NCBI GenBank assembly: GCA_965222115.1
Contig: CBDCTJ010000001.1
Location: 576,001-640,000 of the forward strand
From: Planctomycetota bacterium
GTDB taxonomy: Bacteria > Planctomycetota > PLA2 > JAEUHO01
Direction: 5' to 3'
Length of the DNA stretch: 64,000 nucleotides
The notes under the pieces were generated by a model. That model had not been told where the DNA came from and ran no database searches. It saw only the letters and a list, made by a program, of their open reading frames with translations. Each line of letters begins with the position of its first letter. Position 1 is the first letter of the stretch. Position numbers and translations under genes: made by a program. This document shows, in pieces, positions 20,654 to 44,361 of the stretch.

Positions 20654-20870
20654 GTGGCGCCAAGATACCAAGCAAAGGCACGATCCTCACATTTGACGCG
20701 TTTCGTCGAGCGCGTGTCAAGTGTGTTGCGATGCATGGAACACGGCGGACGAGGGACAGCTTGTCCATCGTGACGCGAGATTGGGCATTATCTACAATCC
20801 AATACATGAAACGAGGCTCATTGGGATGTGCCATGATGCCCGGCGCTTTCGCATCCATACTCGGATGCCG

Positions 20871-23115: not shown

Positions 23116-23220
23116 GCTGGGCAGGGTGGGCGTTTCCAGCCGATACGCGAATTCTCTAGCGGCAATGAAATCGATAGCTTCGGTTTCCTACATAGCACGT
23201 GAACCCCTTGGAGAATCCCC

Positions 23221-23352
23221 ATGAAGGTCCTCGCGTTATTGCTGATTTCACTCTCGCTTACCGCGTGCGGTGGCGGTGGCGGCGGGTCTGAGCCAGCCAG
23301 CGTACCAAACCACTGGGATCAAATGGTGTGGGATCAAGGGTTATGGGAGTAG
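23221..23352 (+). CDS. 43-aa lipoprotein with a Trp-repeat C-terminus (not in the ORF track)
   Basis: GGAGA RBS; MKVLALLLISLSLTACGGGGGGSEPASVPNHWDQMVWDQGLWE*. Confidence 0.75.
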   Translation: MKVLALLLISLSLTACGGGGGGSEPASVPNHWDQMVWDQGLWE

Positions 23353-23407
23353 TTGGCAGCGGACCTGCGACTACGTCCTCGAACTCGACTCAAGTTGGAG
23401 AATCACG

Positions 23408-24034
23408 ATGCGACATTCGAAATATGTAGCGTGGAGCGCAATGCTCCTTCCGGTGGCACTGGTGTGCGCCGGTCTCGTCTATGCAAGTTCGGTCACTACG
23501 CCAAACACGTTCGTTGGGGGCACGGCAGTCGTTGCCGCAGAAGTAAACGCAAACTTCTCGGCGCATGCAGCCGCCATCAATGATAACGATGCGCGACTCA
23601 GCACGTTGGAATCAACCGCAATCACTCAGTTTCGGCGCCAACTTCACAGCTTTGATACGGAGTCCGCCGTATTTACCAATTCGCTAGGTGTTGCCCGACG
23701 GGCAAATCTGATGCGTGTCACTAAACATCATGATGACACGAAGTTTGAACTGGTATACGACGGCGAGTTCTCGCTTACAGAGAACAGCTCCGCCACGTTT
23801 TCTCTTGCGTTTGGACTGGATGACTTCAACCCCGGTAGCTTTCCGGCGCAGATCGAACGAATCTACGATGGTGCGCTGTTTGGAGAAGGCAACTTTCGCA
23901 CCATTTACGACGGGCTACCTGCTGGCGAGTACACCGTCACCGTATGGGGTAGGGCGCACGGAGGCACCGCCACTGGACTCACGCTCTCTCCTCGCAATTC
24001 AAGCGAAACGTTCTTTATCAAAGAGTATCGATAA
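23408..24034 (+). CDS. Exported protein with a fibre-like N-terminal motif
   Basis: GGAGA RBS, signal peptide, PNTFVGGTAVVAAEVNANF plus short coiled coil and beta-rich head. Confidence 0.7.
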   Translation: MRHSKYVAWSAMLLPVALVCAGLVYASSVTTPNTFVGGTAVVAAEVNANFSAHAAAINDNDARLSTLESTAITQFRRQLHSFDTESAVFTNSLGVARRANLMRVTKHHDDTKFELVYDGEFSLTENSSATFSLAFGLDDFNPGSFPAQIERIYDGALFGEGNFRTIYDGLPAGEYTVTVWGRAHGGTATGLTLSPRNSSETFFIKEYR

Positions 24035-24037
24035 CAC

Positions 24038-24087
24038 GGATGCCGAGCCAGATGAGCTACCGGCCTGTTCATCTCATTTTGGTATCT
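24038..24087. repeat. REP-like hairpin bounded by the RGATRCCRAG motif
   Basis: GGATGCCGAG pairs with TTTGGTATCT; inner AGATGAGC/GTTCATCT stem. Confidence 0.6.
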
Positions 24088-24145
24088 TCGGTTTCCAACA
24101 AAACCGCTTGACAGGGCTAACCGTTTAGAGATGACTCGGTATCTT

Positions 24146-24433
24146 CTATGGTGCTTTGCGAATTCCAGCCCTTTGTTCATAGGAACGAAGCTCGCGCTCT
24201 AGTGTATGGGCAGTTCCAAGCTCTATTACGGTACCGTCGCTCGCCATTACGAGCAGAGGCCCGAGACCCAAGATACCTTGCAATTCGTCGCCAGTTTCTA
24301 CAGCGACCTTGGAATTGAAGCAGAACACCCACCCGTAGCTTGTCGGGTGCACGTAGGTTAGTGCCAACGGTATTCTCGTGAGAGAACTCGCGTGCTCTTC
24401 GGCCAGACTCTGGGCTTTGATGCGTGAAATCAT
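24146..24433 (-). CDS. YrhB/Imm35-like immunity protein
   Basis: YGWVFCFNS...LGLGPLLVMASDG...LGTA pattern; follows a Tox-PL-like tip. Confidence 0.75.
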   Translation of the reverse strand: MISRIKAQSLAEEHASSLTRIPLALTYVHPTSYGWVFCFNSKVAVETGDELQGILGLGPLLVMASDGTVIELGTAHTLERELRSYEQRAGIRKAP

Positions 24434-24441
24434 AAATTCTC

Positions 24442-24522
24442 CTAATTCGTTCTAGCGTACGAAATCCTGGCGAAACCGCGAAGATCAGCGCCTTTGGGCG
24501 ATTGCCCGTCAAGGTAGCGCTG
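24442..24522 (-). pseudogene. C-terminal remnant of a papain-fold toxin (Tox-PL-like)
   Basis: QRYLDGQSPKGADLRGFARISYARTN* directly upstream of the YrhB-like gene. Confidence 0.6.
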
Positions 24523-24537
24523 ACTCGGTATCTCCGC

Positions 24538-24765
24538 CTACCGAGGGAGCCACGATGCCTTGAGTATGCGTTCGCTGGCGTCCTCGATTTCGATTCTAGC
24601 GTTCATTCCTCGCGCATTCGTATTCGTGTGGACTTCCCAGATGATCGGACCAAAGAACAGCCAACGTCGCCGTCGCTTCACACGTACGGGCTCCTTCCAT
24701 AACCAACCACGTCGTTCGATCTCAACCCTAGCAATCACTTCTGCACGAACTCGATCTATTGACAT
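24538..24765 (-). CDS. Hypothetical small protein (possible immunity)
   Basis: GAGGAG RBS, 75 aa, inside the cassette array. Confidence 0.55.
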   Translation of the reverse strand: MSIDRVRAEVIARVEIERRGWLWKEPVRVKRRRRWLFFGPIIWEVHTNTNARGMNARIEIEDASERILKASWLPR

Positions 24766-24776
24766 AGCCGTGCTCC

Positions 24777-24986
24777 TCACTCAGCCGAGACGGCGTATTT
24801 GACGTCACCCACGATGATCATCGCCCCAGTCGCCTCACCGACAACGCGCCTCAGCGACACGTACGAAGTCGGTCTTCTTAGCGGGAATCGTATCGCATCG
24901 GGAAGACCCTTGATGCCGCACGCCCGCGGTTGCGCATCCGCCTCTGCTAGGACCTCCTCGAGATAGCGATACAAGTGCGAGCGCTG
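24777..24986 (-). pseudogene. 5'-truncated gene fragment
   Basis: Open frame without a good start, cut at AGATATCAAG (24987-24996). Confidence 0.35.
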
Positions 24987-24991
24987 AGATA

Positions 24992-25147
24992 TCAAGAGAA
25001 TCGATCGCCTAGGTCGATGCCAATTGTCTCGATGATGCGTTTATGCATGCTGGTAGTTCCTCCTGGGCCGTAGAACCCGTTGTTTATTTGCAGCACGATT
25101 TACCGTGACAGCGTGACAGGGGAACTACCGGCCTTTTCACCCCATCT
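24992..25147 (-). mobile_element. IS110-family left end and first codons of the transposase
   Basis: AGGAGG RBS, MHKRIIETIGIDLGDRFS* (IS110 RuvC-like first Asp motif); leader hairpin GGTAGTTCC/GGAACTACC. Confidence 0.65.
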
Positions 25148-25155
25148 CGGTATCT

Positions 25156-25485
25156 TCATCTTGACTTCGAAATTTCGGCAGCCAACTTGTAGGCGAGGCT
25201 GTAGTACATTTCATAATATGGAGAGTCGTTTGGCACATATTCAATCGCTTCGAGACTAACGATCAATCCAGTAGAAGCTCGAAAATCCCTTATGGCCTTG
25301 GTAACCGCCTCCAAAACGCGCGCTGGTTCGACGCTAGACGAGTTATCCTCACGCACCCTAGCTAGCGGAATCAACCTCGGTGGCGAGTCGTTTTCACCCA
25401 ACGCGGGCACTAGGCCGAGGAGAACATGTCGCAACCCGCTGTCAAACATTGCGCGAAATGAGTTACCGCTACGATAAATCTTCAT
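25156..25485 (-). CDS. Hypothetical protein (possible orphan immunity)
   Basis: GGAGG RBS with TAATG overlap to a vestigial upstream stop; bounded by the motif on both sides. Confidence 0.6.
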   Translation of the reverse strand: MKIYRSGNSFRAMFDSGLRHVLLGLVPALGENDSPPRLIPLARVREDNSSSVEPARVLEAVTKAIRDFRASTGLIVSLEAIEYVPNDSPYYEMYYSLAYKLAAEISKSR

Positions 25486-25525
25486 TACTTGCCCTCCAGC
25501 GGATACCAAGCCGCGTATCCTTCAC

Positions 25526-26395
25526 GATACCAAGCCGCGTATTTTCCCACCAACTTCGTGACCTATGCCCCGCACCACATGATGCGGATCTAACAGCTTC
25601 AATGTCCGCGCAAATTGATCCTGCCGCTACGCGAAAGTCTTCTCTATGGCTATTGTCAAGAGTTCAGATGCGTGCAATGCGTAGTTCGAATGTTGCTCGA
25701 TGAGTTTGTGATGGAGTGCGCGAAGACGCCCGACTGTGCTTGTGCTCGCATCAGTCCATCTTGATGCAGCTGCGATTACGAAGCGAGATCGACCGAGCAT
25801 CCCATCGCGTCGATTTGGTCTGTTGAACCAGCGCGTGTATGCATTTCCAATGCGCATCATCGCATAGGACAGCGTTCCCTCGTCCGTACGCGCCATCAAG
25901 TGATAGTGAGAGCCAAGTAAACAGAACGCCTCTGGCCGAATCTCGTCACGACGCCGCGCACACGCGAGGAATGCTTGGAACTGACGACGATCTCGCGGTC
26001 CCGCGAACATCAAACGCTTGCTAATCCCTCGCATATAGATGTGATGACGAACACCCGGACCGTCGAATCGATTGCGCTTGCCCATATACGTAACTACGCG
26101 CAGCGCGCGAAATGGTCACACGTACGGGCGGTGTCAGGCTCTTGCGGTCAGCGCGGTGAGTCGAAAGTCACGAAGTTGGTGGGAAAAAACGCGGCTTCTA
26201 TGAAAAGGCCTTGCATGTCAAGTGCGAAGCCGCGTCGGCGAGCGCATTTTCCGCGTTGTATATGTGCACATCGGCCCCTTGAGTACGCAACTTACCCTTA
26301 TCGCCCTTGCCTTTTTGGCAGCGGATCGGAGCGAATCAAATTGCCAGCCATCGTCACTGGCGCCAGAAAACACGTCCCATTCAGGCTTGGTATCT
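25526..26395. mobile_element. Non-autonomous RAYT element, copy 1
   Basis: Terminal IR GATACCAAGCC/GGCTTGGTATC; 31-bp IR 25532-25562/26167-26197 (30/31) around the transposase. Confidence 0.75.
25627..26085 (-). pseudogene. REP-associated tyrosine transposase (Y1/HUH), internally deleted
   Basis: HHIYMRG, AFCLLGSHYHL (HUH), YTRWFN..RRDG; catalytic YxxxNP region absent. Confidence 0.8.
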
Positions 26396-26398
26396 GTT

Positions 26399-26713
26399 TC
26401 ATCCTGTGCGTAGGTGCCTCACTTGCCGCAGGCGACTAAGAGTATCGCGCAGAGCCGCTGCCCTTTGCGTCTCGTTCACATACAGGAGAAACTTTGCGTT
26501 CTGATGACTTGGCTCCGTCCACTCGTCCTCGAAGGAGTCGTAGTTTGGCTGGAGCACAAAGTGCTCTCCCCCAGATGTTCCTGCTCGATAATAGTCGCCG
26601 ACCCATGAACTTTCATGGAGACTCATCGCGAGTCCGAGCCCCTGCTCGACAATCACCCTAGCGTCCTCAAGAGTGGATGCAGTGATACCATAGAGTGAGT
26701 AGTTGGTGTTCAT
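26399..26713 (-). CDS. Putative immunity protein
   Basis: ATGA-coupled to the toxin tip; HESSWVGDYYR motif. Confidence 0.7.
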   Translation of the reverse strand: MNTNYSLYGITASTLEDARVIVEQGLGLAMSLHESSWVGDYYRAGTSGGEHFVLQPNYDSFEDEWTEPSHQNAKFLLYVNETQRAAALRDTLSRLRQVRHLRTG

Positions 26714-26984
26714 CGGACTCCAATGCTAGGTGATCGTGCCGCAGCCTGGGCCGCAACTCGGTAAACCATGAAATTTACGGGTCGGCCAGCCATCTTCTCG
26801 AGTGATCGCTGTAGACTACTCAGGCCAAGCGACTGAATTTCGACGGGGAGTAGCGGCCCAGTCCGCGTTCCCTTGGACCGTAGGCCAACCCCAAGCCTCG
26901 CGGCAGTGTCAAACAGCGACTCGCTCGCGAGGGCGATGTCGAAGTCGCTGACTCGGCCCACATCGAAGGGCTCGTGCGGAGGCC
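26710..26984 (-). pseudogene. Orphan polymorphic-toxin C-terminal fragment
   Basis: PFDVGRVSDFDIALAS...GLRSKGTRTGPL...GRPVNFMVY; begins at the RAYT element edge. Confidence 0.65.
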
Positions 26985-27086
26985 AGATACCAAGCCGCGT
27001 TTTTTCCCACCAACTTCGTGACCTATGTCCCGCACCACATGATGCGGATCTAACAGCCTCAATGTCCGCGCAAATTGATCCTGCCG

Positions 27087-27569
27087 CTACGCGAAAGTCT
27101 TCTCTATGGCTATTGTCAAGAGTTCGGATGCACGCAGTGCGAAGTTCGAATGTTGCTCGATGAGCTTGTGATGGAGTGCGCGAAGACGCCCGACGGTGCT
27201 TGTGCTCGCATCAGTCCATCTTGATGCCGCTGCGATTGAAAGCCCGGCATAGCTGCACAACATTCCGATTCGAAGTACTTGCCATGCATCGCGTCGATTT
27301 CGCCTGTTGAACCAGCGCGTGTATGCATTTCCAATGCGCATCATCGCATAGGACAACGTTCCCTCGTCCGTACGCGCCATCAAGTGATAGTGAGAGCCAA
27401 GTAAACAGAACGCCTCTGGCCGAATCTCGTCACGACGCCGCGCACACGCGAGGAATGCTCGGAACTGACGACGATCTCGCGGTCCCGCGGACATCAAACG
27501 CTTGCTAATCCCACGCATATAGATGTGATGACGAACACCCGGACCGTCGAATCGATTGCGCGTGCCCAT
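27087..27569 (-). pseudogene. REP-associated tyrosine transposase, internally deleted (different breakpoint)
   Basis: Near-identical N- and C-termini to copy 1 with a different middle. Confidence 0.8.
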
Positions 27570-27675
27570 ATACGTGACTACGCGCAGCGCCCGATATGGT
27601 CACACGTACGAGGCGGTGTCAGACTCTTGCGGCTGGCGCGGTGAGTCGAAAATCACGAAGTTGGTGGGAAAAAAC

Positions 27676-27916
27676 GGCTCTACTGCTCTTTGTGTGGGTC
27701 GTGATTTGGTGATTTCTTGTCCTGCCGCCCCTAAGAGGGCGCGGACGGCAGGAAAAGAAATGATGTTGGTGAGATTGGGCTGTCACAAACTTGTGGGGCC
27801 GTGCGAACCCAGCTACTGAGCCGTTCAAAGGCGCAATTTTTCATGTTGTTGGCGTGTAGTGGCCGCCTCGGATCCAATACGATGCTTCCGTGACCCACAT
27901 GAAGAGCAGGAGACTC
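27676..27916. mobile_element. MITE-like insertion, probably ISL3-derived
   Basis: Imperfect TIR GGCTCTACTGCTCTTTGTGTGGGTC / GACCCACATGAAGAGCAGGAGACTC; 8-bp duplication GAAAAAAC; absent from copy 1. Confidence 0.6.
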
Positions 27917-28137
27917 GAAAAAACGCGGCTTCTATGAAAAGGCCTAGCATGTCAAGTGCGAAGCCGCGCCGGCGAGCGCATTTTCCGCGTTGTATATGTG
28001 CACATCGGCCCCTTGAGTACGCAACTTACCCTTATCGCCCTTGCCTTTTTGGCAGCGGATCGGAGCGAATCAGATTGCCAGCCATCGTCACTGGCGCCAG
28101 AGAACACGTCCCATTCAGGCTTGGTATCTCGGTATCT

Positions 28138-28335
28138 CCGGTAGTACGTGTTGGGCGTCACGCCCAGCTGCTTGCAAATCAACCCTACTTTCGTGCCTTT
28201 TAGCTCAATCTTTGCCTGTCTCAGCATCCCAATAATCTGCTCCGTCGAGTACCGCTTCCTTGCCATCTGTTTGCTCCTGATCGAAAAGGTGTATCCGAAC
28301 AAGTGGCACGCTCTGAGGGGGGGGGGGGCAGGTCA
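28138..28335 (-). mobile_element. IS3-family remnant (left IR plus start of orfA)
   Basis: TGACCTGCCCC end; MARKRYSTEQIIGMLRQA...ICKQLGVTPNTYYR truncated at AGATACCGAG. Confidence 0.75.
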
Positions 28336-28360
28336 CGCGTTAAGAGATGAATCGATATCT

Positions 28361-28786
28361 TTACTCCTGCCACGAGGAGACATCACACAACTCCAAATTG
28401 AAATTCTCTAAAATTCTTAACAGCCGCTGAGACACTATCAGCTCATGCGAAGAATCGACGCCAGCGTCATCATGCCCGGACTCTCCAGTGATAAACAACC
28501 TTCTAAATTTCGGAACTACCAAATCAGGATCGAACTCAGATTGATCTCTATGGACTGTTGTTTTCATGGATCCTATAGAATACCCAGTCAAGTTCGCGTC
28601 CTTAAGTGCGTCGCTCAATCGCGGTGTAACCGCATAACAAGGAAAGCACTCCACCAAATCGTCGCCAGACCAGTTAGAGATTTCCAGATGAAATGCACTC
28701 ACGTCTGGAGGATGAATCGATGTGTCAAGTTGCGACATCACTCCCAATTCACCTGGCACGTCTGGCGTAAGACGGAAGAAATTCAT
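28361..28786 (-). CDS. Putative cognate immunity protein
   Basis: 4 nt after the toxin stop; PDVPGELG...DTSIHPP...WSGDDLVECFPCYAVT pattern recalled from immunity genes beside nuclease toxins. Confidence 0.7.
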   Translation of the reverse strand: MNFFRLTPDVPGELGVMSQLDTSIHPPDVSAFHLEISNWSGDDLVECFPCYAVTPRLSDALKDANLTGYSIGSMKTTVHRDQSEFDPDLVVPKFRRLFITGESGHDDAGVDSSHELIVSQRLLRILENFNLELCDVSSWQE

Positions 28787-28790
28787 AGGA

Positions 28791-31700
28791 CTACCTCACC
28801 GGTGGCACGAACAAATGTCCGTATCGATTGTCAATTGTAGTAGCAAAGTCCAATAGATCCTGCTTTGAAGGACGAGGATTCGCCTTGTACCAGCGATTCC
28901 ATTCCTTTCGAATCGCACTCAAGTGTAGCTTGGAATTGAGCTTCTTCGGGATGCCCCGAAGATTCTCAAGAGAGTGCAGTTCATTGCCTGATAGCTTGAG
29001 GTGCGGGTAACGCCTTTGCACGCTCTGCTCTACCGCATGATGAACCACGACCTTGCCGCGAAGCTCAGGATTCGCCTCAAAGAATGTCTTGCGATAGTCA
29101 ACACGCGTCGCATTGCCAAATTTTGCTCCCGCCTCAGAAGTGGTTGAACGCCTTACCTTCCTCTTTCGAGTAGCCTTCATCCTCTTTACCTTGACTTGCT
29201 TTTTCGAATCGGGTCCTCGATCTGGCTTGTCCGGCTTCTTCGGAGGCTTACTCGGCGGTGGTGCCGAACTACCCGGCTGCGGGACGCCCTCTGGCTGCTT
29301 GGCTTCGGGGGCCTTACGTCGTCTTGTCTTATTGTTATTCGGAGTGCCTATTGGACGAGGCTTTGAGCGCCTTCTTCTAGCCGTCGGCACCGGCGTAGAC
29401 TTAGGACTGCCAGGAGGTCGCTTTATGACCTTCGTCTTCTTTGCGACCGGTGCACTAGATGCTATGGCCTTTGCAATATCAGATTGTTTCAACTTTCCCA
29501 GCTTGCTGGCAACGGCTTTGCCAAGTTTCCCGACAGGGATGAGATCACCAAACGCCGAGATAATCAAAGAGTTCGGCACCGGCTCATGCTTGAGCATTTT
29601 CGCGCCGATCTTTGCAATATCGCTACCGCTCACTTCACCGACAACCTCAAGTACCTCAGCTACGTCCGCGGACTTCTGCTTGGCGAACGTCTGAACGCTC
29701 TTTGGTAGGAGCGACCGAGCCGCTTTTGCGACATCACGTATCGCCTTGGGGCCATACGTGCCTGGAGGACGCGACACACAATCCAGTTTGGCATTCGCCG
29801 GAATGCGAATCACCTGTTCGTGCTTACCAGCCTTGTACTGTAGGTGTTTTTCGTAGTAATTCTTGGCATCGGTGCCGCGCATGGCAAACACAGCGCCGGC
29901 CAAAAGGAAGTAGACGACGTAATCTCCTCCCTCATCAGTCCCCCCACTCAAGTAGTACATCGTTATCTTCTGCCTATCGCGCACTTCTCCAACTGTTGTA
30001 CCCTTCTCGCAAGCCTTCTTGGCAAACTCAACTTGCTCGTGAGGAAACGTCATCCCGGACTCTCCCGAGGGGGCCCTGGGAGGTTTGATGGGAGGCGGAG
30101 GTTTCTTGGTGGGAGGAGGAGGTGGTGGCGGCGAATCAACTCCACCGTACCCATGCCCCGCTCCGGGAGGAGATACGCGGTTGCGGTGCCCGCCCGCATC
30201 GCTTTTACCGTCGTTCTCATCGCTCGATTCAGGAGGAACAACCGGAGGCTTAAGAGGAACAGCGATTGATGTCGTAGGGCCTTTTGCACCGCCGCCTGCT
30301 CCCGCCCCAGGCGCCTTCTCCTTGGCTTTAGGCGGCTCATCCGGATCACTCGTACACTCGCACTTTCCGGGAGGCGGGCAGGTTTCTATACACTTTTTCT
30401 TGGCCTCCTGGAGCTCCTTATCGCACTTCTTCTTGAACTCTTCTTCGCGCTTCTTTTTGCGCTTTTCGAGATCGTCTTTCTCTTGTCCTTCATTTCCCTC
30501 AAGAGGCTTGTCATATCCATTTAGCTCATCGAGGCGGGCCTCTTCATCCGCGGTTTGCTCTGCACGTAGTTCAGATAGTTCCTGCTCAGCGGCCTTCTTC
30601 TCGTCCTTGCTAGCCTCGGGATCGTCCTTGACCTTCTGAAGCGCGTCCATCCTATTATCGCGACGGGTGCGCTCCTTCTTTCTCAACTCATAGCGCCTGT
30701 CTTTTCGATCGCGACGCTGCTTAGCACGCCTTTTGAGCTCGTCGAGTTCCCTCTGTCGTTCACGCTCAGATAGTTCGAGTTCCTTCTTCCTGCTCTTCTG
30801 CTTTGGGCTCAACTTGATCCCAAGATCTTCAGACGATCCAAGAGACTCTTTCTCCAAGTTCTCACGGTCGAGTTGATACTCACGAAAATCGTCACGCACT
30901 GCTTCGCGCGAATCGATATCTCGCTCGCGTCTCATGCGCGCATCACCCGTTCGGCTTCGATTGTTACGAATACGTTCGCGCGCCGTGGATCGCGCACTAC
31001 GTGCGACGTTAGAGGCCTCTCTCCTCCTCTTGCGCAGATTTCTACTTCTTGTGGCACTATTAGGCGGGCGACGTGCTTCTTTCTCAAGGTGCCTAAGCTC
31101 GGCTTCCATAGCACGAGAAGCTGCTTCGTACTCTCGACGTGCCTGTTGGGATAATTCGTTCTTGCCGGTAGTTGCCGACTTCATGGCTTCGAGACTGTCG
31201 CGAACATCATTCTTGGCAGATTCTAAATCCGATCTTGACAGATCCATCTTGTTCCTGAGCATATTCAAATGCGAATTGACCTTCAGTCGTGTTTCTTCAA
31301 GATCCGAGAAGTCATTCCCTGTCTGTTCGTGATCTTCTCGTCGAGCACCTTCGACTGACGACTTCGCCTGACTCTCTCGAAACCGGTCTTCTTTTCGCTT
31401 GACTAGATCGCTCAGCTTGTCTCTTGCAAGCTCAAAAGCCGCTCTAGCTCTGTGATAGTTCCACATGACGAATGTCCGTTTCGCAACCGCCCGACCAAGT
31501 TCGACCCCCGGACTGCTCCCTCCTCCACCTCCGCCACTTGGAGTAGAGGCAACCAGCCCCCCTGGAGCGCGAGATTTGTAGTTTCCCGCTACATATCGAT
31601 CCTCTGCAAGAGGAGCTGGCATCTGAACATTGCTCGGAGGCAGAACTCCGCCCTTAGTTCCAGGCTGGAGCGCAACACGTCCACCCAAGTAGTCTCCAGG

Positions 31701-33788
31701 CATACGTGCAAGACTCTTACTTGCAGTAGTATTGTGTTGGCGGCGCGGCGAATTCCGAACGAGTCGCCCAATGCCAGAGGAAGCGGTGGTAGGTTTGCCT
31801 GGATGCGAAGAAGGGGCGAGTGCTTGAGCTCTCGCGAATCGTGGCGTAGATGGTGCAAGCGGACGCGGTGCTCCATATCGCGCTACGCGAACTTCGGCCT
31901 TGGATGGTATTGGCGCACGCGTTGAACGCGAGATCGTGGGACCTCCGAACGAACTAGCAAGATCGTATGGTCCCTTCTGACGAATTGGCTTTGCTGATTT
32001 GTTGTATGCATTGAGTGCTCGAGCTTTCGCGAATCGTGGCGCAGATGGCACAATCGGACTCGGTGTCCCATATCGTGCTGCGCTAACTTCGGTCTTGGAA
32101 AGTTCTGACGCATGCGTTGAACGCGAGATTGTGAGACCGCCGAAAGAACCAGTACTCTCGTATGGTTCTTCCTGACGCGCTGACTTTCCTGATTTATTGA
32201 ATGTCGCGTTCGCTAGGTGCCGCGAGTTACCCAACTGGCGAGAAGACCGAGTGCCACTCGGGTTAGCTGAGTAGTACTCAAGACTTGATGAATCAAAGTC
32301 ATAAATCTCGGAATGAAGCTTGAACAGCGGATGCAGCTCGATCGGCTCTTTCACTATTCCAGCCTGCTGCCCGGGGGGCTTCTCTATTCGCTGAAGACTC
32401 GGAGAAGGACCTGAGGGGCTCGAACTACTATTGCCTAAGCGACTCTCTTCTAATCGAGTGGACTTGTAATTTGACGGAGATTCGACAGGCGTTTTCTCTT
32501 GGCGCTCTAGGAGCGGGTTACGCCCACGACCGCCACCGCCTCCTCCTCCGCCGCCACCTCCGCCGGCGCCGCCGCCACCTCCACCTTGATCATCGTCATC
32601 ATCGTCGCCCGACTCCGGTTCATCGGGTACATTCGGATCAAGGCGCGCATCAAAATCATAAATTTCCCAATCGCGAGTAATCCACTCAAGAAACGGACCA
32701 ACCATGGGCCACCCAAGGCCTAGGGGCGCAAAGGCAGGTCCAAGTAGAGGCAAAAATTCCAAGCCGCGGCGGTTATCAATCTCGATTGCTCCGCTACCAG
32801 CGTCCTCGGTTCGAGAGAGATAACGATGAGCTTCGGCTATCTGATCCCCCGAGAGACTTCGATTACCTTCTAGCAGTCGCTGCTCGAACCCTAGAGAACT
32901 AGTCACTTGCGCAGTAGAGTCCACACGAGTGAGCGTGTGTAAATCTTCGATTGCGCCAAGTCCACCGTCAATCTCAAGTGGCGCGGGAATGAGTGCTCGT
33001 GGCTGCTGCAGAAAATTTTCGGGAACTGAAATGGTGACGCCAGCGTCAATTGGATTCGTCCCGGTCGAAGTAGCTATGAACTCGAACGGCTCCTCAGGAA
33101 GAGGTAAGGGTTTAGGGACGGGCATGACGGGAAATACATCTTGCGGAAACACACCCATCGGAAACATATCTAGGAGAGATACGGCCTCTTCGGGTTCGCG
33201 GATGCACTTGCACTCAATGTTGCACTGACGCTCGGCTTCTTCAGCGGGCTTCTTGTCCCCGTCTTCACCTCCACCACCCCCCTTCCCACGATCCTGAATC
33301 TCAAGACCGCGAGACTTGAACTCCCCAGAGGCAGCAGGAACTTCAGGATCCGCCTTCTTTCCAACGACGCGCCGCCGCGGGCGCTCATTAGCACCCGATG
33401 ACCCATGATAATTACTCGAAGCAACATCTGACGGCGATTCGACCTCAGCGCTACCCGAGCTACTCCCCATTGCTGCATCCGAGGTGTGCGCGCGAGGCGT
33501 TTGCTGCAACAACTCTTGCAACATGGTTGGGCTGGATTGCCCAGGCAGCATGACGCCGCGCGTTTCCGAGGAGAACTGCCCCTCAATGACGTCGGTTCCA
33601 CGCGGGCCCAAATCATCTGGGCTAGGAACGACGCGTGAATAGGCCGCACGAACCCCCGCCCTTCGTTTGGAAGGGCGGAGGGTTGCTACGGTACCGTCGG
33701 GAAGTTCACATTTTTCGCTACGTCCAGCGTATCGAGTGTCTTTACTACCGAGACAGGACTTACATCCACATGCACTACTAAGATCCAC
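28791..33788 (-). CDS. 1665-aa putative polymorphic toxin with a C-terminal HNH/EndoVII-like nuclease tip
   Basis: Tip VVVHHAVEQ...LHSLENLRGIP...LHLSAIRKEWN; charged coiled coil, low-complexity linkers, Cys clusters; immunity gene downstream. Confidence 0.75.
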   Translation of the reverse strand: MDLSSACGCKSCLGSKDTRYAGRSEKCELPDGTVATLRPSKRRAGVRAAYSRVVPSPDDLGPRGTDVIEGQFSSETRGVMLPGQSSPTMLQELLQQTPRAHTSDAAMGSSSGSAEVESPSDVASSNYHGSSGANERPRRRVVGKKADPEVPAASGEFKSRGLEIQDRGKGGGGGEDGDKKPAEEAERQCNIECKCIREPEEAVSLLDMFPMGVFPQDVFPVMPVPKPLPLPEEPFEFIATSTGTNPIDAGVTISVPENFLQQPRALIPAPLEIDGGLGAIEDLHTLTRVDSTAQVTSSLGFEQRLLEGNRSLSGDQIAEAHRYLSRTEDAGSGAIEIDNRRGLEFLPLLGPAFAPLGLGWPMVGPFLEWITRDWEIYDFDARLDPNVPDEPESGDDDDDDQGGGGGGAGGGGGGGGGGGGRGRNPLLERQEKTPVESPSNYKSTRLEESRLGNSSSSPSGPSPSLQRIEKPPGQQAGIVKEPIELHPLFKLHSEIYDFDSSSLEYYSANPSGTRSSRQLGNSRHLANATFNKSGKSARQEEPYESTGSFGGLTISRSTHASELSKTEVSAARYGTPSPIVPSAPRFAKARALNAYNKSAKPIRQKGPYDLASSFGGPTISRSTRAPIPSKAEVRVARYGAPRPLAPSTPRFARAQALAPSSHPGKPTTASSGIGRLVRNSPRRQHNTTASKSLARMPGDYLGGRVALQPGTKGGVLPPSNVQMPAPLAEDRYVAGNYKSRAPGGLVASTPSGGGGGGSSPGVELGRAVAKRTFVMWNYHRARAAFELARDKLSDLVKRKEDRFRESQAKSSVEGARREDHEQTGNDFSDLEETRLKVNSHLNMLRNKMDLSRSDLESAKNDVRDSLEAMKSATTGKNELSQQARREYEAASRAMEAELRHLEKEARRPPNSATRSRNLRKRRREASNVARSARSTARERIRNNRSRTGDARMRRERDIDSREAVRDDFREYQLDRENLEKESLGSSEDLGIKLSPKQKSRKKELELSERERQRELDELKRRAKQRRDRKDRRYELRKKERTRRDNRMDALQKVKDDPEASKDEKKAAEQELSELRAEQTADEEARLDELNGYDKPLEGNEGQEKDDLEKRKKKREEEFKKKCDKELQEAKKKCIETCPPPGKCECTSDPDEPPKAKEKAPGAGAGGGAKGPTTSIAVPLKPPVVPPESSDENDGKSDAGGHRNRVSPPGAGHGYGGVDSPPPPPPPTKKPPPPIKPPRAPSGESGMTFPHEQVEFAKKACEKGTTVGEVRDRQKITMYYLSGGTDEGGDYVVYFLLAGAVFAMRGTDAKNYYEKHLQYKAGKHEQVIRIPANAKLDCVSRPPGTYGPKAIRDVAKAARSLLPKSVQTFAKQKSADVAEVLEVVGEVSGSDIAKIGAKMLKHEPVPNSLIISAFGDLIPVGKLGKAVASKLGKLKQSDIAKAIASSAPVAKKTKVIKRPPGSPKSTPVPTARRRRSKPRPIGTPNNNKTRRRKAPEAKQPEGVPQPGSSAPPPSKPPKKPDKPDRGPDSKKQVKVKRMKATRKRKVRRSTTSEAGAKFGNATRVDYRKTFFEANPELRGKVVVHHAVEQSVQRRYPHLKLSGNELHSLENLRGIPKKLNSKLHLSAIRKEWNRWYKANPRPSKQDLLDFATTIDNRYGHLFVPPVR
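31818..32207 (-). repeat. Tandem 195-bp (65-aa) intragenic duplication
   Basis: SFGGxTISRST...ARYGxP...PRFAxAxAL twice. Confidence 0.85.
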
Positions 33789-34691: not shown

Positions 34692-35228
34692 TTAATGACG
34701 CGCCATGCCCCTAAAAATTGAATTGGACGAATTCGAGCGCCTCAACGCGCGAGCAGCTCTGTCAATGCACCTACGAAATGCACTTGGATGTATTCCAAGT
34801 AGCCGAGCAGCACCGTCAATGGATTCGGACGCCATGTAAGCATCGAGCGCTTCCCGTTGACGACCCGTAAGTTGCTCACCACGGGAACGTACAACATCAC
34901 GCAGACTTACCATGCCCCTTGATTGCCGCATCGGCATCGACTCACTTGCCGCGATGGAGTCGTGTGCATTTCGACTTAGTACCCGCACCTGCTCCCTCGC
35001 AACATTCCGCGCCACCATTCGCAACCATCCGTCCGACTCAAGCTTCTCCGAATCGTCCTCCGCACTCACATAGCGCTCCCACACTCGAACACACGTCTCC
35101 TGCAGCACATCTTGTTGATCGTGAGGCTGAAGGCGATAACGCCTCGCCTCTTGATCACAGAGCTGCGCAAGTCTCGGGAGCCTCTGCTCGAACTCCCTAG
35201 CTCTCACCCGAAGACTTCCATTCTTCAT
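34692..35228 (-). CDS. ECF-type sigma-70 factor (start uncertain; ORF extends to 35330)
   Basis: DQQDVLQETCVRVW, WLRMVARN (region 2); LTGRQREAL...AARLLGI (region 4). Confidence 0.75.
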   Translation of the reverse strand: MKNGSLRVRAREFEQRLPRLAQLCDQEARRYRLQPHDQQDVLQETCVRVWERYVSAEDDSEKLESDGWLRMVARNVAREQVRVLSRNAHDSIAASESMPMRQSRGMVSLRDVVRSRGEQLTGRQREALDAYMASESIDGAARLLGIHPSAFRRCIDRAARALRRSNSSNSIFRGMARH

Positions 35229-41014: not shown

Positions 41015-41103
41015 GGACCGTAGAGCCCGCCTTTTTCGCAGCACGGTTTTCCGTGACTGATCTATAGAGGAGCTACCGGCCTTTTCGTTCCATCTCGGTA
41101 TCC
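41015..41103 (-). repeat. Second IS110-like left-end remnant abutting the motif
   Basis: ~90-bp similarity to 25064-25155, ending in CATCTCGGTATCC. Confidence 0.6.
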
Positions 41104-41145
41104 AGTACCCGGCATCCATCTCGATATCCTCGTATCCGTTGGTGA

Positions 41146-41640: not shown

Positions 41641-41876
41641 TTAGCTATCCATGTCGCGTTGGTGGACTCTGAGTTGAAGGGGGCGGGGTTGGGCGGTCAT
41701 CGACCTAGCGATCAACGTCGTATTTCGAACGTCATTGAGTTGGTGAGATTAAACGCGACTTTGCATCCACAAATTGCCTTGGCCGCAGGACTGACTAGCG
41801 AGCGGCCTTTCATCCCATCTCGGCATCTACATCGAGCGGTGAACTCCGGGCCATACCACTTAGAATCGGTCACCCT

Positions 41877-42785
41877 ATGGAATCACGCCCTCCCACCGGA
41901 CCTAATCACCCGTCGAACGCCCAACTTCGGAGTCGAATCGAGACGCTCTTCGATGGTCCTGTTCAGTTTGAGGATCGATCCCGGACGTTCGGGCGCGCCC
42001 ATGTGGTGTGGCGGGTGTCCACGCACAGCGGCGAGGCGTTCTTTGCCAAGCAGCACGAATCTCCGCTCCACTTTGGGCGCGCATTGATGGCCCATGAACG
42101 ATGGTTTCCTGAGCTCAAGCACATTGACAGCCTTGCTCTCCCCCATGCCGTCGCCGTCGACTACGACCTGCATCTCATCGTTGTGAAGGAGATCGAAGGG
42201 CAGATCGTTGACAACGTATCGCCGCACGATCAGTTGATCGCAATGCGATTGGCCGGACGAATTTTGCGCGCGGTTCACGATGTCGATGACCGTCTGAATC
42301 AAGGGGATTCAGAAGCGGCGCACCGCGCGATGGCCGTCAAGTATACTGGGATACTCCCGGGAGAAGTGTCTGCGGAAGAAGAGGCATGGATACGTTCAAT
42401 CGCCTCGGACACGTCCATCTTTCGTCATGCACGAGCGGTCCCTACTCACGGTGATTTTTCGCCACGCAACTGGATACTTCAGAGTGCAGAGTGTGGGCCA
42501 GTACTCGGCGTGATCGACTGGGAGCGCGCTCGTCACCATGCTTGGATTCACGACATCGTTCGCATGATGCACGACTACTGGGCGCGGGAGCCTGCAGGGC
42601 GTGACGCATTCTTTGCTGGGTATGGTCGCACGCCCAGCGACGCCGAAGAGCGACAGATCCTCTGGAGCAGTGCGCTAATGGCGGGAGCGAGCGTTGCTTG
42701 GGCACGCACATTTGGTGACCGCCACTATGAACAACTTAATCGCGACTTGCTAGCGCGCCTGATGGCAAGACACCCTCGAATTTGA
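41877..42785 (+). CDS. Aminoglycoside phosphotransferase (APH/ChoK)-family kinase
   Basis: HGDFSPRNW, VIDWE, FFAGYG. Confidence 0.85.
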   Translation: MESRPPTGPNHPSNAQLRSRIETLFDGPVQFEDRSRTFGRAHVVWRVSTHSGEAFFAKQHESPLHFGRALMAHERWFPELKHIDSLALPHAVAVDYDLHLIVVKEIEGQIVDNVSPHDQLIAMRLAGRILRAVHDVDDRLNQGDSEAAHRAMAVKYTGILPGEVSAEEEAWIRSIASDTSIFRHARAVPTHGDFSPRNWILQSAECGPVLGVIDWERARHHAWIHDIVRMMHDYWAREPAGRDAFFAGYGRTPSDAEERQILWSSALMAGASVAWARTFGDRHYEQLNRDLLARLMARHPRI

Positions 42786-42804
42786 GAAAGATACTGAGTC
42801 ATCT

Positions 42805-44361
42805 CTACTTCGCACCCTTCGACGCCGGCTTGGCACGCATCTTCGGATGGGGCACAACGGCGGGCCAACGGATGGAAACCGACGTACCGCGACCGGGTGT
42901 ACTCGATAGCGTCATAGCGCCGCCGGAAGCATGTACGATTTCGCGGACGAGATAGAGTCCGAGTCCCGAGCCACCGGGTTTGTCGGTGAAGAAGGGCTCG
43001 AACACTTTGGCTTGAACGTCTTCGGGAATGCCAGGTCCACTATCGCGAATGGTGACCTTGACGCTGCGCCGCATACGGCGTACTTGCAGGGTGATGGTGC
43101 CGCGTCGTGCTGCTGCGCTTGGTTCGGGTTCCGTGCCTTTTCCATTGGTTGGGACGTGAGCCGCGGCGGGCATCACGGTTTCGTGTGTGCCACGAATGGC
43201 GTCGAGTGCGTTCTCAACCACGTTGAGCAATACACGTCGAACTTGATTGGGATCCACGGAGATCTCGTGGTTGCCGTCATCGCGGCGCACGCGCATGGTT
43301 ACGCCCACGTCCGCCGCACGCGATTCGAGCTCTTCGGTAAACGATGCCACGGTGTCGCCGAGATCGAGGACTTTGGGTTCCGCGCCGCCGATCTTAGAGA
43401 GCGCGAGGTAGTGCGTAATGATCTGATTGAGACGCTCAATCTCTTCGCGAATGGCCTGCAGGGTGGGTGCGATGGCGCGGCGTGTGGCGTCGTCAGCCTC
43501 CAGCTCGTCTTCCAAGAGATCCGTTGATATGAATAACGAGTTGAGCGGATTACGAAACTCGTGTGCCACGCTACCGGCGATTTTTGCCATCGCGGAGAGC
43601 TTCTCCGTTTCGATGAGACGCTCTTTGATGTGTTGCACTTCGGTCAAGTCATGAAACACAAATAGGTAGCGCTCCCGGTCGGGATCTTTCTTTGACGCGC
43701 GATTGTTGTTTGGTGAATTGTTTCCTTTGGATGTGTCTTTCTTGGATACGTCTTTGGATTGGCTTGAACTGCCCACCTCACCACTGTCGGGCAGGCGCGA
43801 TGCAAACATGCGTACCGGCACCGACTCGCCACCGGAGCGACGCAACATGAGCTCACGCCCCCGTATCGCTCCGCGCTGGTCAAGATCGCTAAGAATCGTT
43901 CGGTATGTCTCGCCGTTCTCGAAGATCGAACGCAGCCCACGACGCCCGACTTCCCAGCGCTTGCGACCGGTCAAGCGCGCCGCGGCAGCACTCCAGCGGG
44001 CAAGCCGACCCGATGCGCGCACCGTCACAACGGCATCGGGCGTTGCACGCAACAAATGGTCCCAATGCAGCTCCCCGGGTGCTGGCAACGGCGCACCTTC
44101 CGACTTACGACGTCGCGACGATTTTCGCTTCTTCTTACGATCGCTGGCCTTGCGGTCATTCGCTTTGCGTTCGCCGGCCTTTCGATCACTTGCCTTGCGG
44201 TTCGCCCGTTTCTGATCGGGCGCGCGTCGAGCTGCGGTCTTCTGATCCTTCTTCTTGTCCCTCTTCTTGTCCTCGTTCGGCGCCTTCCGCTCGGCCACGT
44301 TTCCCTCAGTGGACTTGCGCTCCCCTGCCTTGTTCGAACTCTTGGATCGGGCAGATGCCAT
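42805..44361 (-). CDS. NtrB-like PAS histidine kinase with a basic N-terminal extension
   Basis: PAS, EKLSAMAKIAGSVAHEFRNPL, NVVENALDA, DSGPGI, FEPFFT, GSGLGL. Confidence 0.92.
   Translation of the reverse strand: MASARSKSSNKAGERKSTEGNVAERKAPNEDKKRDKKKDQKTAARRAPDQKRANRKASDRKAGERKANDRKASDRKKKRKSSRRRKSEGAPLPAPGELHWDHLLRATPDAVVTVRASGRLARWSAAAARLTGRKRWEVGRRGLRSIFENGETYRTILSDLDQRGAIRGRELMLRRSGGESVPVRMFASRLPDSGEVGSSSQSKDVSKKDTSKGNNSPNNNRASKKDPDRERYLFVFHDLTEVQHIKERLIETEKLSAMAKIAGSVAHEFRNPLNSLFISTDLLEDELEADDATRRAIAPTLQAIREEIERLNQIITHYLALSKIGGAEPKVLDLGDTVASFTEELESRAADVGVTMRVRRDDGNHEISVDPNQVRRVLLNVVENALDAIRGTHETVMPAAAHVPTNGKGTEPEPSAAARRGTITLQVRRMRRSVKVTIRDSGPGIPEDVQAKVFEPFFTDKPGGSGLGLYLVREIVHASGGAMTLSSTPGRGTSVSIRWPAVVPHPKMRAKPASKGAK

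Follow-up and report, generated by a model that had tools for sequence, protein, structure and literature searches.

Heads of REP-like repeats punctuate a putative toxin–immunity island in a Planctomycetota bacterium

Introduction

Enterobacterial REP sequences carry a GTAG head. Orphans at Rhs and CDI loci are separated by remnants of a conserved toxin core, and integrons and the recombinase-associated immunity arrays of Bacteroidales hold small same-strand genes, each closely trailed by one short sequence.

RAYT genes are described as typically single-copy (PMC5581495) and REPs as targets of insertion sequences (PMC1525189). Work on ISPpu9 describes a transposase module and a separately inserted RNA module (ssr9) in REPs, and work on IS1111 describes an NCR downstream of the transposase gene and a seekRNA logic.

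Here we analyse a 64-kb stretch of DNA, referred to as the window and numbered from its first letter, in which the decamer RGATACCRAG recurs. The original prediction held that inverted copies of the decamer bound integron-like cassettes, and that RAYT-mediated cutting and joining assembled an archive of immunity genes. We favour, with a probability of about 0.6, an island of orphan immunity genes into which REP/RAYT units and an insertion sequence (IS) that targets REPs have moved. As REP heads and IS pieces litter the island, its resemblance to an integron is more probably a by-product than the work of a cassette-building machine.

Results

The decamer is clustered in one island

The window contains 11 exact copies of RGATACCRAG, where 0.22 are expected and 100 shuffles gave at most 2 (window scan: 13395, 20663, 24135, 24524, 25146, 25501, 26386, 26985, 28120, 28128 and 41094). 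The relaxed form RGATRYYRAG occurs 21 times against 2.5 expected, with extra sites at 24038, 24987, 41819 and 42789, and degenerate copies are readable by inspection at 24078 and 25525. Genome-wide (4.55 Mb), 9 of the 52 exact matches fall in a single 20-kb bin, and nine exact copies inside 4 kb form the sole cluster of this kind. Just one other cluster holds at least three exact heads, the four copies of a tandem-headed REP. Counts of RGATACCGAG exceed those of its reversed control, at 36 v 9 in the source genome and at 24 v 5, 19 v 2, 17 v 3 and 12 v 1 in relatives. Tandem heads are common in the source genome and in the comparison genomes G001, G013 and G015.

20663..20700 (+): head and degenerate REP body of A-type, the genome's other REP family (family comparison by eye)
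28120..28137 (−): two overlapping heads, AGATACCGAGATACCAAG (exact-motif scan)

The decamer is the head of repeats that flank RAYT-like genes

The decamer had been equated with the terminal inverted repeat (IR) of RAYT elements, and this identification extends far beyond the source genome: it is the conserved 5′ head (outer tip) of REP-like inverted repeats flanking a clade of Y1/HUH (RAYT/IS200-kind) genes. The proteins of this clade are about 340–390 aa long (334–380 aa in 9 full-length homologues) and carry a C-terminal extension. Both window units show head-CCGCGT..TCCCACCAACTTCGTGAC in inverted orientation, with the motif as the outer IR end; in related genomes, 7 of 10 RAYT loci have flanking IRs that start with GATACCGAG, GATACGGAG, GTACGGAG, GATACCGTG or GTACCGAG, the rest of the repeat being variable. 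Among the 71 metagenome RAYT loci with enough flank, 65 have an IR of at least 16 nt, and in 44 a head caps the IR on the outside. An upstream copy of the core TAC[CG]G[AT]G is present on the gene strand in 61/74 metagenome loci, versus 15/74 on the opposite (control) strand; downstream copies on the other strand are present in 50/59, and copies on both sides in 43/57. At least two dispersed repeat families of the source genome are topped by the head GATACSGWG, with 21 A-type and 12 B-type copies (33 in total).

25501..25534 (+): duplicated head and start of REP body, left end of unit 1
25526..26191 (−): RAYT unit 1, REP arms and a 152-aa internally deleted Y1/HUH ORF (25627–26085)
26985..26994 (+): head topping the left REP arm of unit 2, where the NTase-fold ORF is truncated
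26995..27676 (−): RAYT unit 2, REP arms and a 160-aa internally deleted Y1/HUH ORF (27087–27569)
27677..27925 (no strand): MITE-like repeat of ~250 bp, inserted into the right-hand REP arm of RAYT unit 2, with ~10 partial genome matches elsewhere

By alignment, both window ORFs have lost about 200 aa internally, so that the N-terminal 103 aa are fused to the last ~50 aa, and the RYIDxNP helix with the catalytic tyrosine is missing from both; judged by sequence, the window RAYTs are probably disabled. The pair has a dN/dS of ~0.28 (15.7 synonymous and 15.3 non-synonymous differences), which suggests that these ORFs may be more than mere wrecks. The search for an intact RAYT returned no closer, cognate copy in the assembly and only apparently intact paralogues with repeat bodies that differ from those of the window: C7:1066473 (341 aa, tyrosine helix present) and the candidate C7:306665 (324-aa open frame), whose own repeats contain AGATACC.

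Genes of the island

24146..24433 (−): Imm35 immunity gene, 95 aa (Pfam PF15567, E 3.2e-7, 30.8 bits, cut-off 27.5)
24538..24986 (−): pair of small ORFs of 72 and 80 aa, no family matches
25156..25485 (−): 109–117-aa ORF, no assigned family, 50% identical homologue in genome G020
26399..26713 (−): 104-aa partner of the NTase-fold gene, kept beside it in G020
26710..26984 (−): NTase-fold gene remnant, N-terminal part including the G-S motif lost
28361..28786 (−): 141-aa ORF, starting 4 nt past the large ORF, no family match
28791..33788 (−): 1665-aa ORF, large toxin-like gene
41877..42810 (+): APH-family kinase gene, including head and extension (PF01636, E 2.8e-15)

The 1665-aa ORF has no match in Pfam or NCBIfam. 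Its last 126 aa have language-model look-alikes in the AHH, Tox-SHH, Tox-GHH2 and DUF2380 clusters (0.90–0.93; a lead only), and its sequence ends in ...VVVHHAVEQ...; these features make it a probable polymorphic toxin that ends in an HNH-type nuclease tip. The 141-aa ORF is, by position, a candidate for its cognate immunity gene, and the 104-aa gene is a candidate immunity or antitoxin gene. Over 90 aa the NTase-fold remnant shares 82% identity with a 156-aa frame in G020, and it resembles NTP_transf_2 at 0.92. We interpret the window as containing a toxin and immunity island composed of the large toxin-like gene, its neighbour and orphan small genes including Imm35.

Heads sit directly behind stop codons

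We scanned for heads with at most 2 mismatches lying 0–4 nt past same-strand ORF stops. Seven island genes have such a head, at (distance in nt) 24038 (3), 24135 (1), 24524 (4), 25146 (0), 26386 (3), 42789 (3) and 28351 (0). The first six had been proposed earlier; the last was not on that list and lies behind the 141-aa ORF beside the large toxin-like gene.

24038..24087 (no strand): near-palindrome of head, ~30 nt IS left-end tip and inverted head, 3 nt past the stop of a convergent 254-aa gene
24123..24144 (−): head and 12-nt extension, AGATACCGAG TCATCTCTAAAC, 1 nt past the Imm35 stop
24512..24533 (−): head and partial extension, 4 nt past the stop of the 80-aa ORF
25146..25155 (−): head directly past the stop of the 109–117-aa ORF, IS left end next
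26386..26395 (−): head, 3 nt past the stop of the 104-aa gene
28339..28360 (−): degenerate head and extension, AGATATCGAT TCATCTCTTAAC, directly past the stop of the 141-aa ORF
42789..42810 (+): head and extension, 3 nt past the stop of the APH-family kinase gene

Within the window 13/75 matches lie near stops, against 5.5% (174/3183) in the remaining genome, and the six further window matches are probably due to chance; the decamer marks junctions and gene ends more often than expected, as had been claimed. The stop-adjacent heads of five minus-strand genes are all in the same (direct) orientation. Outside the array, only 2/43 exact heads adjoin stops. Sitting behind stops is nonetheless a habit of the REP family elsewhere in the genome too: 5 of the 22 A-like copies beyond the window lie within 6 nt after a same-strand ORF of at least 70 codons (binomial p 0.0007–0.006 against a background of 3.4–5.5%).

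Heads in the island adjoin stops more closely and more regularly than heads elsewhere in the genome, which counts against the reading that we prefer. A private 12-nt extension, TCATCTCTWAAC, present on four heads and at no other place in the genome, is likewise counted against it.

An IS1111/IS110-type element docks at heads

The IS transposase has the domains DEDD_Tnp_IS110 (2.2e-18) and Transposase_20 (4.1e-22), and the element has subterminal inverted repeats, with an NCR of 386 nt downstream of its tnp gene. It inserts at the joint of head and repeat body: of its three full genomic copies, two lie between a head and an A-type body, and the third lies at a non-REP site. In G013, a genome of another genus, a related IS left end comes after AGATACCGAG.

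24987..24996 (+): head-like decamer at the inner break of the following fragment, equal to CAATACCAAG in the intact IS
24989..25145 (−): 157-bp IS left-end fragment, 87% identical to the full IS
26192..26388 (−): solo 194-bp NCR module, copy 1
27926..28122 (−): solo 194-bp 3′-NCR module, copy 2, between head and REP body
41015..41129 (−): ~80-bp IS left-end fragment behind a head, and a second head-like copy
41800..41828 (−): degenerate head and ~17 nt IS left-end tip

IS pieces follow at least six heads, with left-end fragments behind those at 25146, 41094, 41819 and 24078 and two solo 194-bp modules, each between AGATACCAAG and CCGCGTTTTTT. The solo module begins at an internal ...CATAGA-AG junction resembling the right end of the IS, and one genomic IS copy holds the module region in three tandem repeats. 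The 3′ module carries ACGCGGCTT, the bottom strand across the element's own insertion point, and the element is presumably RNA-guided; the NCR is only weakly complementary to the part of the target formed by the head, and its best matches are to the head AAG plus repeat body or to a non-REP site.

Truncations and cassette boundaries

28138..28331 (−): IS3-family left end with orfA fragment (HTH_Tnp_1), 91.5% identical to two full copies

The original prediction also placed the decamer at truncation points. The NTase-fold remnant is cut exactly at the head at 26985, where homology to G020 begins; IS3 orfA is truncated at 28138, beside the tandem heads, and the full IS3 shows no head-like site at the break position; and the IS110-family left-end fragment is cut at 24987–24996, in a head-like stretch native to the IS. 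The second proposed toxin tip (24777–24986), by contrast, has no toxin match. Breakage at the native head-like site hints at a site-directed rather than random event. Unit 2 adjoins the truncated remains of two different genes, the NTase-fold gene and IS3 orfA, so simple insertion is insufficient and a recombination joint lies at one head at least. In G001, the head of a RAYT unit truncates an RHS/YD-repeat ORF.

A module shared with G020 (~83–85% nucleotide identity), the sole cassette with a near homologue in another genome, has a head exactly at one boundary and 7–9 nt off at the other, and cross-genome comparison of this cassette found no head within 3.3 kb of the homologous module. In G020 the homologue of the 109–117-aa ORF sits in a row of tightly packed small genes with no heads in the intergenic gaps, the sole head (1017) lying inside an ORF. 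The G020 module and gene row suggest that the heads are secondary to the genes.

Discussion

Our analysis suggests a sequence of events, whose order we infer. Most island genes would have acquired a REP-like repeat behind the stop codon; the IS would then have repeatedly invaded the heads and decayed, leaving left-end tips, the 157-bp left-end piece and the two solo 194-bp 3′ modules; the two internally deleted RAYT units with their own repeat arms also lie within the array; and recombination among the repeated elements, most simply homologous, would have trimmed neighbour genes exactly at heads. On this reading, the cassettes would be stretches between outward heads and not products of a dedicated cassette recombinase. 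Inverted heads do surround each cassette, as had been described for several; these heads belong to neighbouring elements and face outward, with REP bodies or IS pieces outside the cassette, and the cassettes are therefore intervals between elements and not cargo.

It is unlikely that a RAYT from an intact paralogue, acting in trans, nicks ssDNA at heads and joins them head-to-head, thereby capturing, deleting and reordering immunity modules as an HUH-driven analogue of an integron. Such activity would fit the five minus-strand genes with direct heads 0–4 nt from their stops, the head-bounded G020-shared module, the three unrelated genes cut at heads together with the RHS ORF in G001, the tandem heads as a possible residue of repeated nick-and-join, and the two apparently intact paralogues. 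However, the local RAYTs lack the tyrosine, the paralogues' repeat bodies differ, the inverted heads point away from the cassettes, stop adjacency is also seen at ordinary REP copies, the IS remnants after most heads require no RAYT, and we found no head-bounded cassette in a second context. Weak evidence comes from contigs of four runs, in which heads had no alternative joints. Of the proposed archive, the presence of at least one immunity gene (Imm35) is supported; RAYT cutting and joining as its assembler is not supported, given the local RAYTs, the outward heads and the IS fragments.

Equally doubtful is that the IS recombinase itself, guided by RNA, made the joints by docking at a head, recombining with pseudo-sites, deleting or rearranging flanks and leaving head-plus-tip scars. 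The number of heads trailed by IS pieces, at least six versus three full copies genome-wide, speaks for it, as do the right-end mimicry of the solo module, the three tandem module repeats, the left-end fragment broken at a head-like site and the several kinds of circle reported for ISPpu9; yet IS3 is not broken at a head-like site, the heads belonging to the RAYT units require no IS, and the NCR pairs weakly with the head part of the target.

Retention of the head, with or without its extension, as a 3′-end element for mRNA stability, translation termination or transcription termination, with mobile-element use secondary, is very improbable: its fixed position 0–4 nt past stops on the coding strand, the same habit in other REP copies and a paper reportedly devoted to REP sequences regulating translation favour it, but heads and single REP arms form no stable hairpin (z 0.1–0.5), an Rfam search gave no match, and the extension is private to the island.

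Comparison with known systems

The island and its mobile elements share features with four described arrangements. Like integrons and Bacteroidales immunity arrays, the island has small same-strand genes, each with a copy of a short sequence close behind; unlike them, contig C1 has no tyrosine recombinase or integrase (the genome has 7 PF00589 matches elsewhere), folding analysis found no attC-like site at heads, and we saw no cassette with its site in a second context. As in orphan toxin/immunity arrays, a small gene comes after a large toxin-like gene and precedes a string of small genes that includes Imm35 and a truncated enzyme-domain remnant, whereas here REP heads, scraps of the IS and RAYT units lie between the orphans.

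As in REP/REPIN–RAYT systems, an HUH-domain gene lies between oppositely oriented copies of a short repeat with further copies dispersed in the genome, and the repeat has a short conserved head, resembling the enterobacterial arrangement, and a variable body. It differs in that the proteins of the clade are long with a C-terminal extension, the head is ~8–9 nt (TACSGWG core), single arms are not hairpins, and the gene is multi-copy and locally internally deleted. The IS resembles the REP-targeting IS110/IS1111 elements that use bridge RNA or seekRNA (ISPpu9, ISPpu10, IS621 and ISPa11) in its DEDD transposase with Transposase_20, its subterminal IRs, its NCR downstream of tnp and its orientation-specific insertion at one REP point, and its solo RNA-module copies parallel those reported for ssr9 of ISPpu9; new are the host lineage, the target, which is the head–body joint of the island's REP family, and the unusually large number of decayed fragments crowded in one island.

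Results

The head motif and its position behind genes

The 10-nt motif RGATACCRAG, which forms the outer tip of REP inverted repeats and is called the head here, occurs in 11 exact copies in the 64-kb window against 0.22 expected and a maximum of 2 in 100 shuffles; a relaxed head pattern gives 21 copies against 2.5 expected. The assembly (7 contigs, 4.55 Mb; the window is C1:576001-640000) holds 52 exact heads, 9 of them within one 20-kb bin, and the array is its only cluster of at least three heads besides one REP with tandem heads. The window counts and this clustering rule out a chance origin of the copies, and all head coordinates of the original prediction are present in our scans.

Heads lie 0-4 nt past the stop codon of a same-strand ORF at 24038, 24135, 24524, 25146, 26386 and 42789, and at 28351 there is an additional stop-adjacent head that the original prediction overlooked. 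When heads with up to two mismatches were scanned against same-strand ORFs of at least 70 codons, 13 of 75 hits in the window were stop-adjacent, compared with 174 of 3183 (5.5%) in the remaining genome; for exact heads the count is 6 of 52 genome-wide, 4 of them in the array, and the random-position rate is 3.4%, which marks the array out within this class. The predicted junction bias of the motif therefore holds, as stop adjacency exceeds the genome background. Outside the window, 5 of 22 copies resembling the dispersed A-type REP family lie at most 6 nt past a same-strand stop (binomial p 0.0007-0.006), behind ORFs that include one of 1516 codons and another of 336, and we conclude from these copies that REP repeats bearing the head tend to settle right behind stops. 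The array shows the same stop-adjacency habit as ordinary REP copies, at higher density.

Anatomy of the array

Order of elements along the array (read on the minus strand; a RAYT unit comprises REP arms and a Y1/HUH ORF)
1. 1665-aa ORF
2. 141-aa ORF, then a degenerate head with an extension
3. IS3 left end and orfA fragment
4. Two overlapping heads
5. 194-bp module, RAYT unit 2 (26995-27676, minus strand; a 250-bp repeat in one arm), inverted head
6. NTase-fold remnant and 104-aa gene, head
7. 194-bp module, RAYT unit 1 (25526-26191, minus strand), inverted heads
8. 117-aa ORF, head
9. 157-bp IS left end, inverted head-like site
10. 72-aa and 80-aa ORFs, head
11. Imm35, head
12. 48 nt, head, about 30 nt of IS tip, inverted head; abuts the stop of a convergent gene

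The inverted head pairs around the cassettes (the gene stretches between heads) point outward: each of these heads has its matching repeat body or IS piece on the far side from the cassette. The cassettes are thus gaps between elements and not cargo inside element ends. The gene-trailing heads stand in direct orientation, hence the integron-like look. RAYT unit 2 adjoins two different truncated genes, and one or both of its ends must therefore be recombination joints, for which homologous recombination between two inserted copies would suffice.

A private 12-nt extension, TCATCTCTWAAC, is attached to four heads, which follow the 141-aa ORF, Imm35, the 80-aa ORF and the APH gene. The rest of the genome lacks it, and public genomes contain it no more often than chance predicts; the 18-nt extended motif gave 108 hits in public genome contigs, spread over unrelated taxa and close to the estimated chance number. 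The extension was also considered as a scar of the IS left-end hairpin (3' arm TCATCT) and this was rejected, as only 6-7 nt agree. The repeat of about 250 bp in the REP arm at 27677-27925 has about 10 partial genome copies and an apparent short duplication, AAAAAACG; it could represent a MITE or the two ends of another IS joined together. Twelve consecutive G (C on the opposite strand) occupy 28317-28328 at the IS3 left end, possibly a slippage tract or an assembly weakness; the blast match to full IS3 copies ends at 28322, just before this run.

Contigs from four public runs of a single study, which may be the source of the assembly and would then not be independent, reproduce the head junctions, with 23200-25628, 26359-27021 and 28064-28400 free of differences. 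Their low-depth contigs hold no head-to-head alternative joint, and the joints listed fit other repeat copies, which is weak evidence and does not establish absence.

The head is the terminal motif of a RAYT clade

The two RAYT-like ORFs of the window (25627-26085 and 27087-27569, both minus strand) have inverted arms on each side, of the form head-CCGCGT(T)nCCCACCAACTTCGTGAC. The head is shared by two dispersed REP families, the A-type (21 genome copies of GATACGGTG-TACGGGCAAAATCCACAC) and the B-type seen in the window (12 genome copies), and tandem heads are common in the genome. Homologues of the window ORF in related genomes are frames of 340-400 aa, and at 7 of 10 such loci the flanking inverted repeats start with GATACCGAG, GATACGGAG, GTACGGAG, GATACCGTG or GTACCGAG; the repeats of the protein from the related genome G001, for instance, begin with GATACCGAG. 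Beyond the head, the remainder of the flanking repeat is unrelated among these loci.

A scan with a single RAYT ORF found nothing in metagenomes, and a family alignment retrieved 80 loci. An inverted repeat of at least 16 nt surrounds the gene at 65 of the 71 loci with enough flank, and at 44 of those loci the head stands at its outer end. The core TAC[CG]G[AT]G is found within 400 nt upstream at 61 of 74 loci on the gene strand, compared with 15 of 74 on the opposite one; downstream it stands on the other strand at 50 of 59 loci, and 43 of 57 have it on both sides. RGATACCGAG is also commoner than its reversed control in several relatives. Because the RAYT flanks of relatives and metagenomes carry the head, the identification of the motif as a RAYT terminal motif is borne out, and it extends to the whole clade; in the window and in relatives alike, the RAYT gene is flanked by inverted copies of a dispersed repeat.

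For single B-type arms the predicted fold does not exceed shuffled controls (z 0.13 and 0.31), and these arms are not the palindromic hairpins of classical REPs; the heads, too, fold no better than shuffles, and an Rfam scan of 19000-45000 with E up to 1 gave no match. A third RAYT paralogue in the source genome (C7:305850-307160) is flanked by true palindromic repeats, GCGCCACAGATACCTGGTATTTCTGGCGC, whose stem holds the head sequence and its complement.

The window RAYT ORFs carry an internal deletion

The window ORFs match NCBIfam REP_Tyr_transpos weakly (E 4e-4 to 9e-4, below cut-off) and have no Pfam hit at E up to 0.01; a PDB sequence search with the 152-aa ORF gave no match at E up to 10. 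Full-length homologues match Pfam Y1_Tnp (4.9e-8 for the genome's own paralogue, 3.7e-4 for the G001 protein), and the H-x-H motif of the Y1 HUH domain is invariant in the RAYT alignment. In the window proteins, the N-terminal 103 residues, H-x-H included, are fused to the last ~50 residues; about 200 residues are deleted internally in both, among them the tyrosine-bearing RYIDxNP helix that is present in the 9 full-length homologues aligned, and the catalytic tyrosine is thus missing. Judged by their sequences, the local RAYTs are disabled. The assembly holds no closer intact copy, its best other matches being 46% and 41% identical with different flanking repeats; it is 90% complete, and an intact copy may sit in the unassembled part. 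Between the two deleted ORFs we count 15.7 synonymous and 15.3 non-synonymous changes (dN/dS ~0.28), and some constraint on them may therefore persist. Both mini-RAYT ORFs carry the same in-frame deletion; instead of being dead, they may have been retained for DNA binding.

An IS1111/IS110-type element inserts at heads

A 1533-bp element, the IS, has three full genome copies, and its two ends are matched by the stretches 24989-25155, 26195-26388 and 27929-28122. Its 349-aa protein contains DEDD_Tnp_IS110 (PF01548, 2.2e-18) and Transposase_20 (PF02371, 4.1e-22); the gene occupies positions 98-1147 of 1533 and is followed by a non-coding region (NCR) of 386 nt, and subterminal inverted repeats, ATGAAAAGGCC, lie near both ends. 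Two full copies sit between a head and an A-type body, one preceded by AGATACCGAG and followed by GGCAAAATCCACAC, the other between AAATACGGAG and TACGGGAAAAATCCACAC; the third is at a non-REP site. In G013, which belongs to another genus, the insertion pattern is the same and a related IS left end follows AGATACCGAG. The flanks of the three full copies, two solo modules and fragments show site- and orientation-specific insertion lacking long target duplications.

The solo modules are the last 194 bp of the IS, which occur twice alone, between AGATACCAAG and CCGCGTTTTTT in the right arm of each RAYT unit; in the full IS, an internal ...CATAGA-AG joint mimicking the right end stands before the same 194 bp. 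Left-end pieces follow the heads at 25146 (157 bp), 41094 (~80 bp), 41819 (~17 nt) and 24078 (~30 nt), and in one of the left-end fragments the break falls on a head-like site that the IS itself carries. The possibility that the head is itself IS sequence is ruled out, because the left flanks of the three full copies differ.

Within the 194-bp module lies ACGCGGCTT, which is the bottom strand spanning the module's own insertion point, and in the NCR a 9-mer spans the REP-B site and a 10-mer and a 7-mer span the non-REP site, matches whose chance level is not negligible. These sequence matches are suggestive of, and not decisive for, RNA guidance of the IS through its NCR. On the minus strand of 25100-25165, a single-strand fold is predicted (-10.7 kcal/mol, z -2.4) in which TACCG of the head pairs with CGGTA ~45 nt into the IS left end; such pairing could matter for end recognition. 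One IS copy (C7:2359821-2361999) has its last 323-325 bp, part of the 3' NCR, in three tandem copies, which is odd for an IS and may be linked to modular circle formation.

Cassette homologues lack heads

G020, a genome of another genus, contains a homologue of the NTase-fold remnant and its 104-aa partner (82% identity over 90 aa; nucleotide identity of the module about 83-85%). The homology starts exactly at the inverted head 26985, so the window copy has lost the N-terminal part, including the G-S motif, and ends ~2 codons before the window stop, 7-9 nt from the head at 26386; the longer G020 frame resembles NTP_transf_2 (0.92, a lead only). No head lies within 3.3 kb of this G020 locus. 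The G020 homologue of the 117-aa ORF stands in a row of tightly packed small genes whose intergenic gaps contain no head; the one head in the row, at 1017, is inside an ORF. As the G020 homologues lack heads, we infer that heads are additions of the source genome's lineage and do not travel with the modules. The other cassettes have no close homologue among 40 genomes of the order and no second copy in the source genome, and a DNA search with the APH cassette in the order gave short weak matches only. On a 3.2-kb contig of G001 (C90; coordinates 196-1290 and 1255-2390), the head at one end of a full-length RAYT unit truncates an RHS/YD-repeat ORF, which terminates within that head, and the opposite end of the unit has tandem heads.

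Toxin and immunity genes

Imm35, a recognised immunity family (30.8 bits, cut-off 27.5), is the sole firm immunity assignment in the island. The 1665-aa ORF has no toxin-domain hit in Pfam or NCBIfam; language-model look-alikes of its C-terminal tip are AHH, Tox-SHH and GHH2 (0.90-0.93, leads only). The 69-aa frame at 24780-24986 had been called a toxin tip, a reading that finds no support, as longer relatives were found neither by protein search nor in the 40 genomes. G+C is 0.49-0.58 in the island and ~0.60 in its surroundings, and is low from ~23 to 44 kb; just upstream of the 1665-aa ORF, at 34692-36433, are two phage-like genes, one sigma-70-like and the other encoding an AAA_24 (phage-type) ATPase. 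The island may be a prophage or mobile-element remnant. Elsewhere in the assembly, contig C6 (48 kb) has a G+C of 0.397 against ~0.59 in the other six contigs and could be a plasmid or phage, or contamination introduced by binning.

Discussion

Our results are most likely explained by the combination of a REP-RAYT system, whose head is newly defined here, with an IS1111/IS110-type element targeting this head and an orphan immunity island; all three components are of known kinds, and precedents for REP-targeting IS elements exist in the literature. The short conserved head (TACSGWG core) is thereby defined for a clade of long RAYT-like HUH proteins that is widespread and little described, and a second mobile element, of the RNA-guided IS1111/IS110 kind, lands on the same head in at least two genera. 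A literature search, which was not exhaustive, found no description of this head or of such an array. The head also offers a concrete substrate for biochemical tests of RAYT function.

The original prediction held that RAYTs had cut and joined the array into being. It is supported in part: its motif identity and junction bias stand, whereas the assembly mechanism does not, with the disabled RAYTs, the outward-pointing heads, the lack of an integrase on C1 and the headless homologues in G020 speaking against it. A more elaborate version would make the head an attC-like site: a RAYT of the clade would nick bare heads and join head to head, capturing between-head modules behind a toxin gene, possibly as a heterodimer with the tyrosine-less mini-RAYTs binding DNA, and would thus be an integron analogue on single-strand HUH chemistry. 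Active capture of this kind is unlikely, and we keep it at perhaps one chance in ten because of the 12-nt extension, the break of the IS at its native head-like site and the RHS truncation in G001. If true, this would add a new route by which gene-cassette arrays are built. Under the REP-RAYT and IS account that we prefer, the array is a cautionary case, in which integron-like regularity can come from stop-adjacent repeats and repeated IS invasion.

The array differs from integrons in three respects: integrons have an IntI-type tyrosine recombinase beside the array, whereas none is encoded on C1 (7 PF00589 matches genome-wide); each integron cassette has a folded attC-type site, whereas here there is only a 10-nt head (22 nt in four cases) with no significant fold; and integron cassettes occur with their site in other contexts, whereas none was found in G020, the 40 genomes of the order or the source genome. 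It also departs from classical REP-RAYT systems, where the RAYT is a one-copy, housekeeping-like gene, in having two copies 1.5 kb apart and two paralogues. The IS, in turn, shares the layout given for the IS1111 type in PMC11187229, namely subterminal inverted repeats and a long NCR after the transposase gene, and it is similar to ISPpu9 of Pseudomonas putida, which sits in REPs and is made of a transposase module and a small-RNA module that is also found alone.
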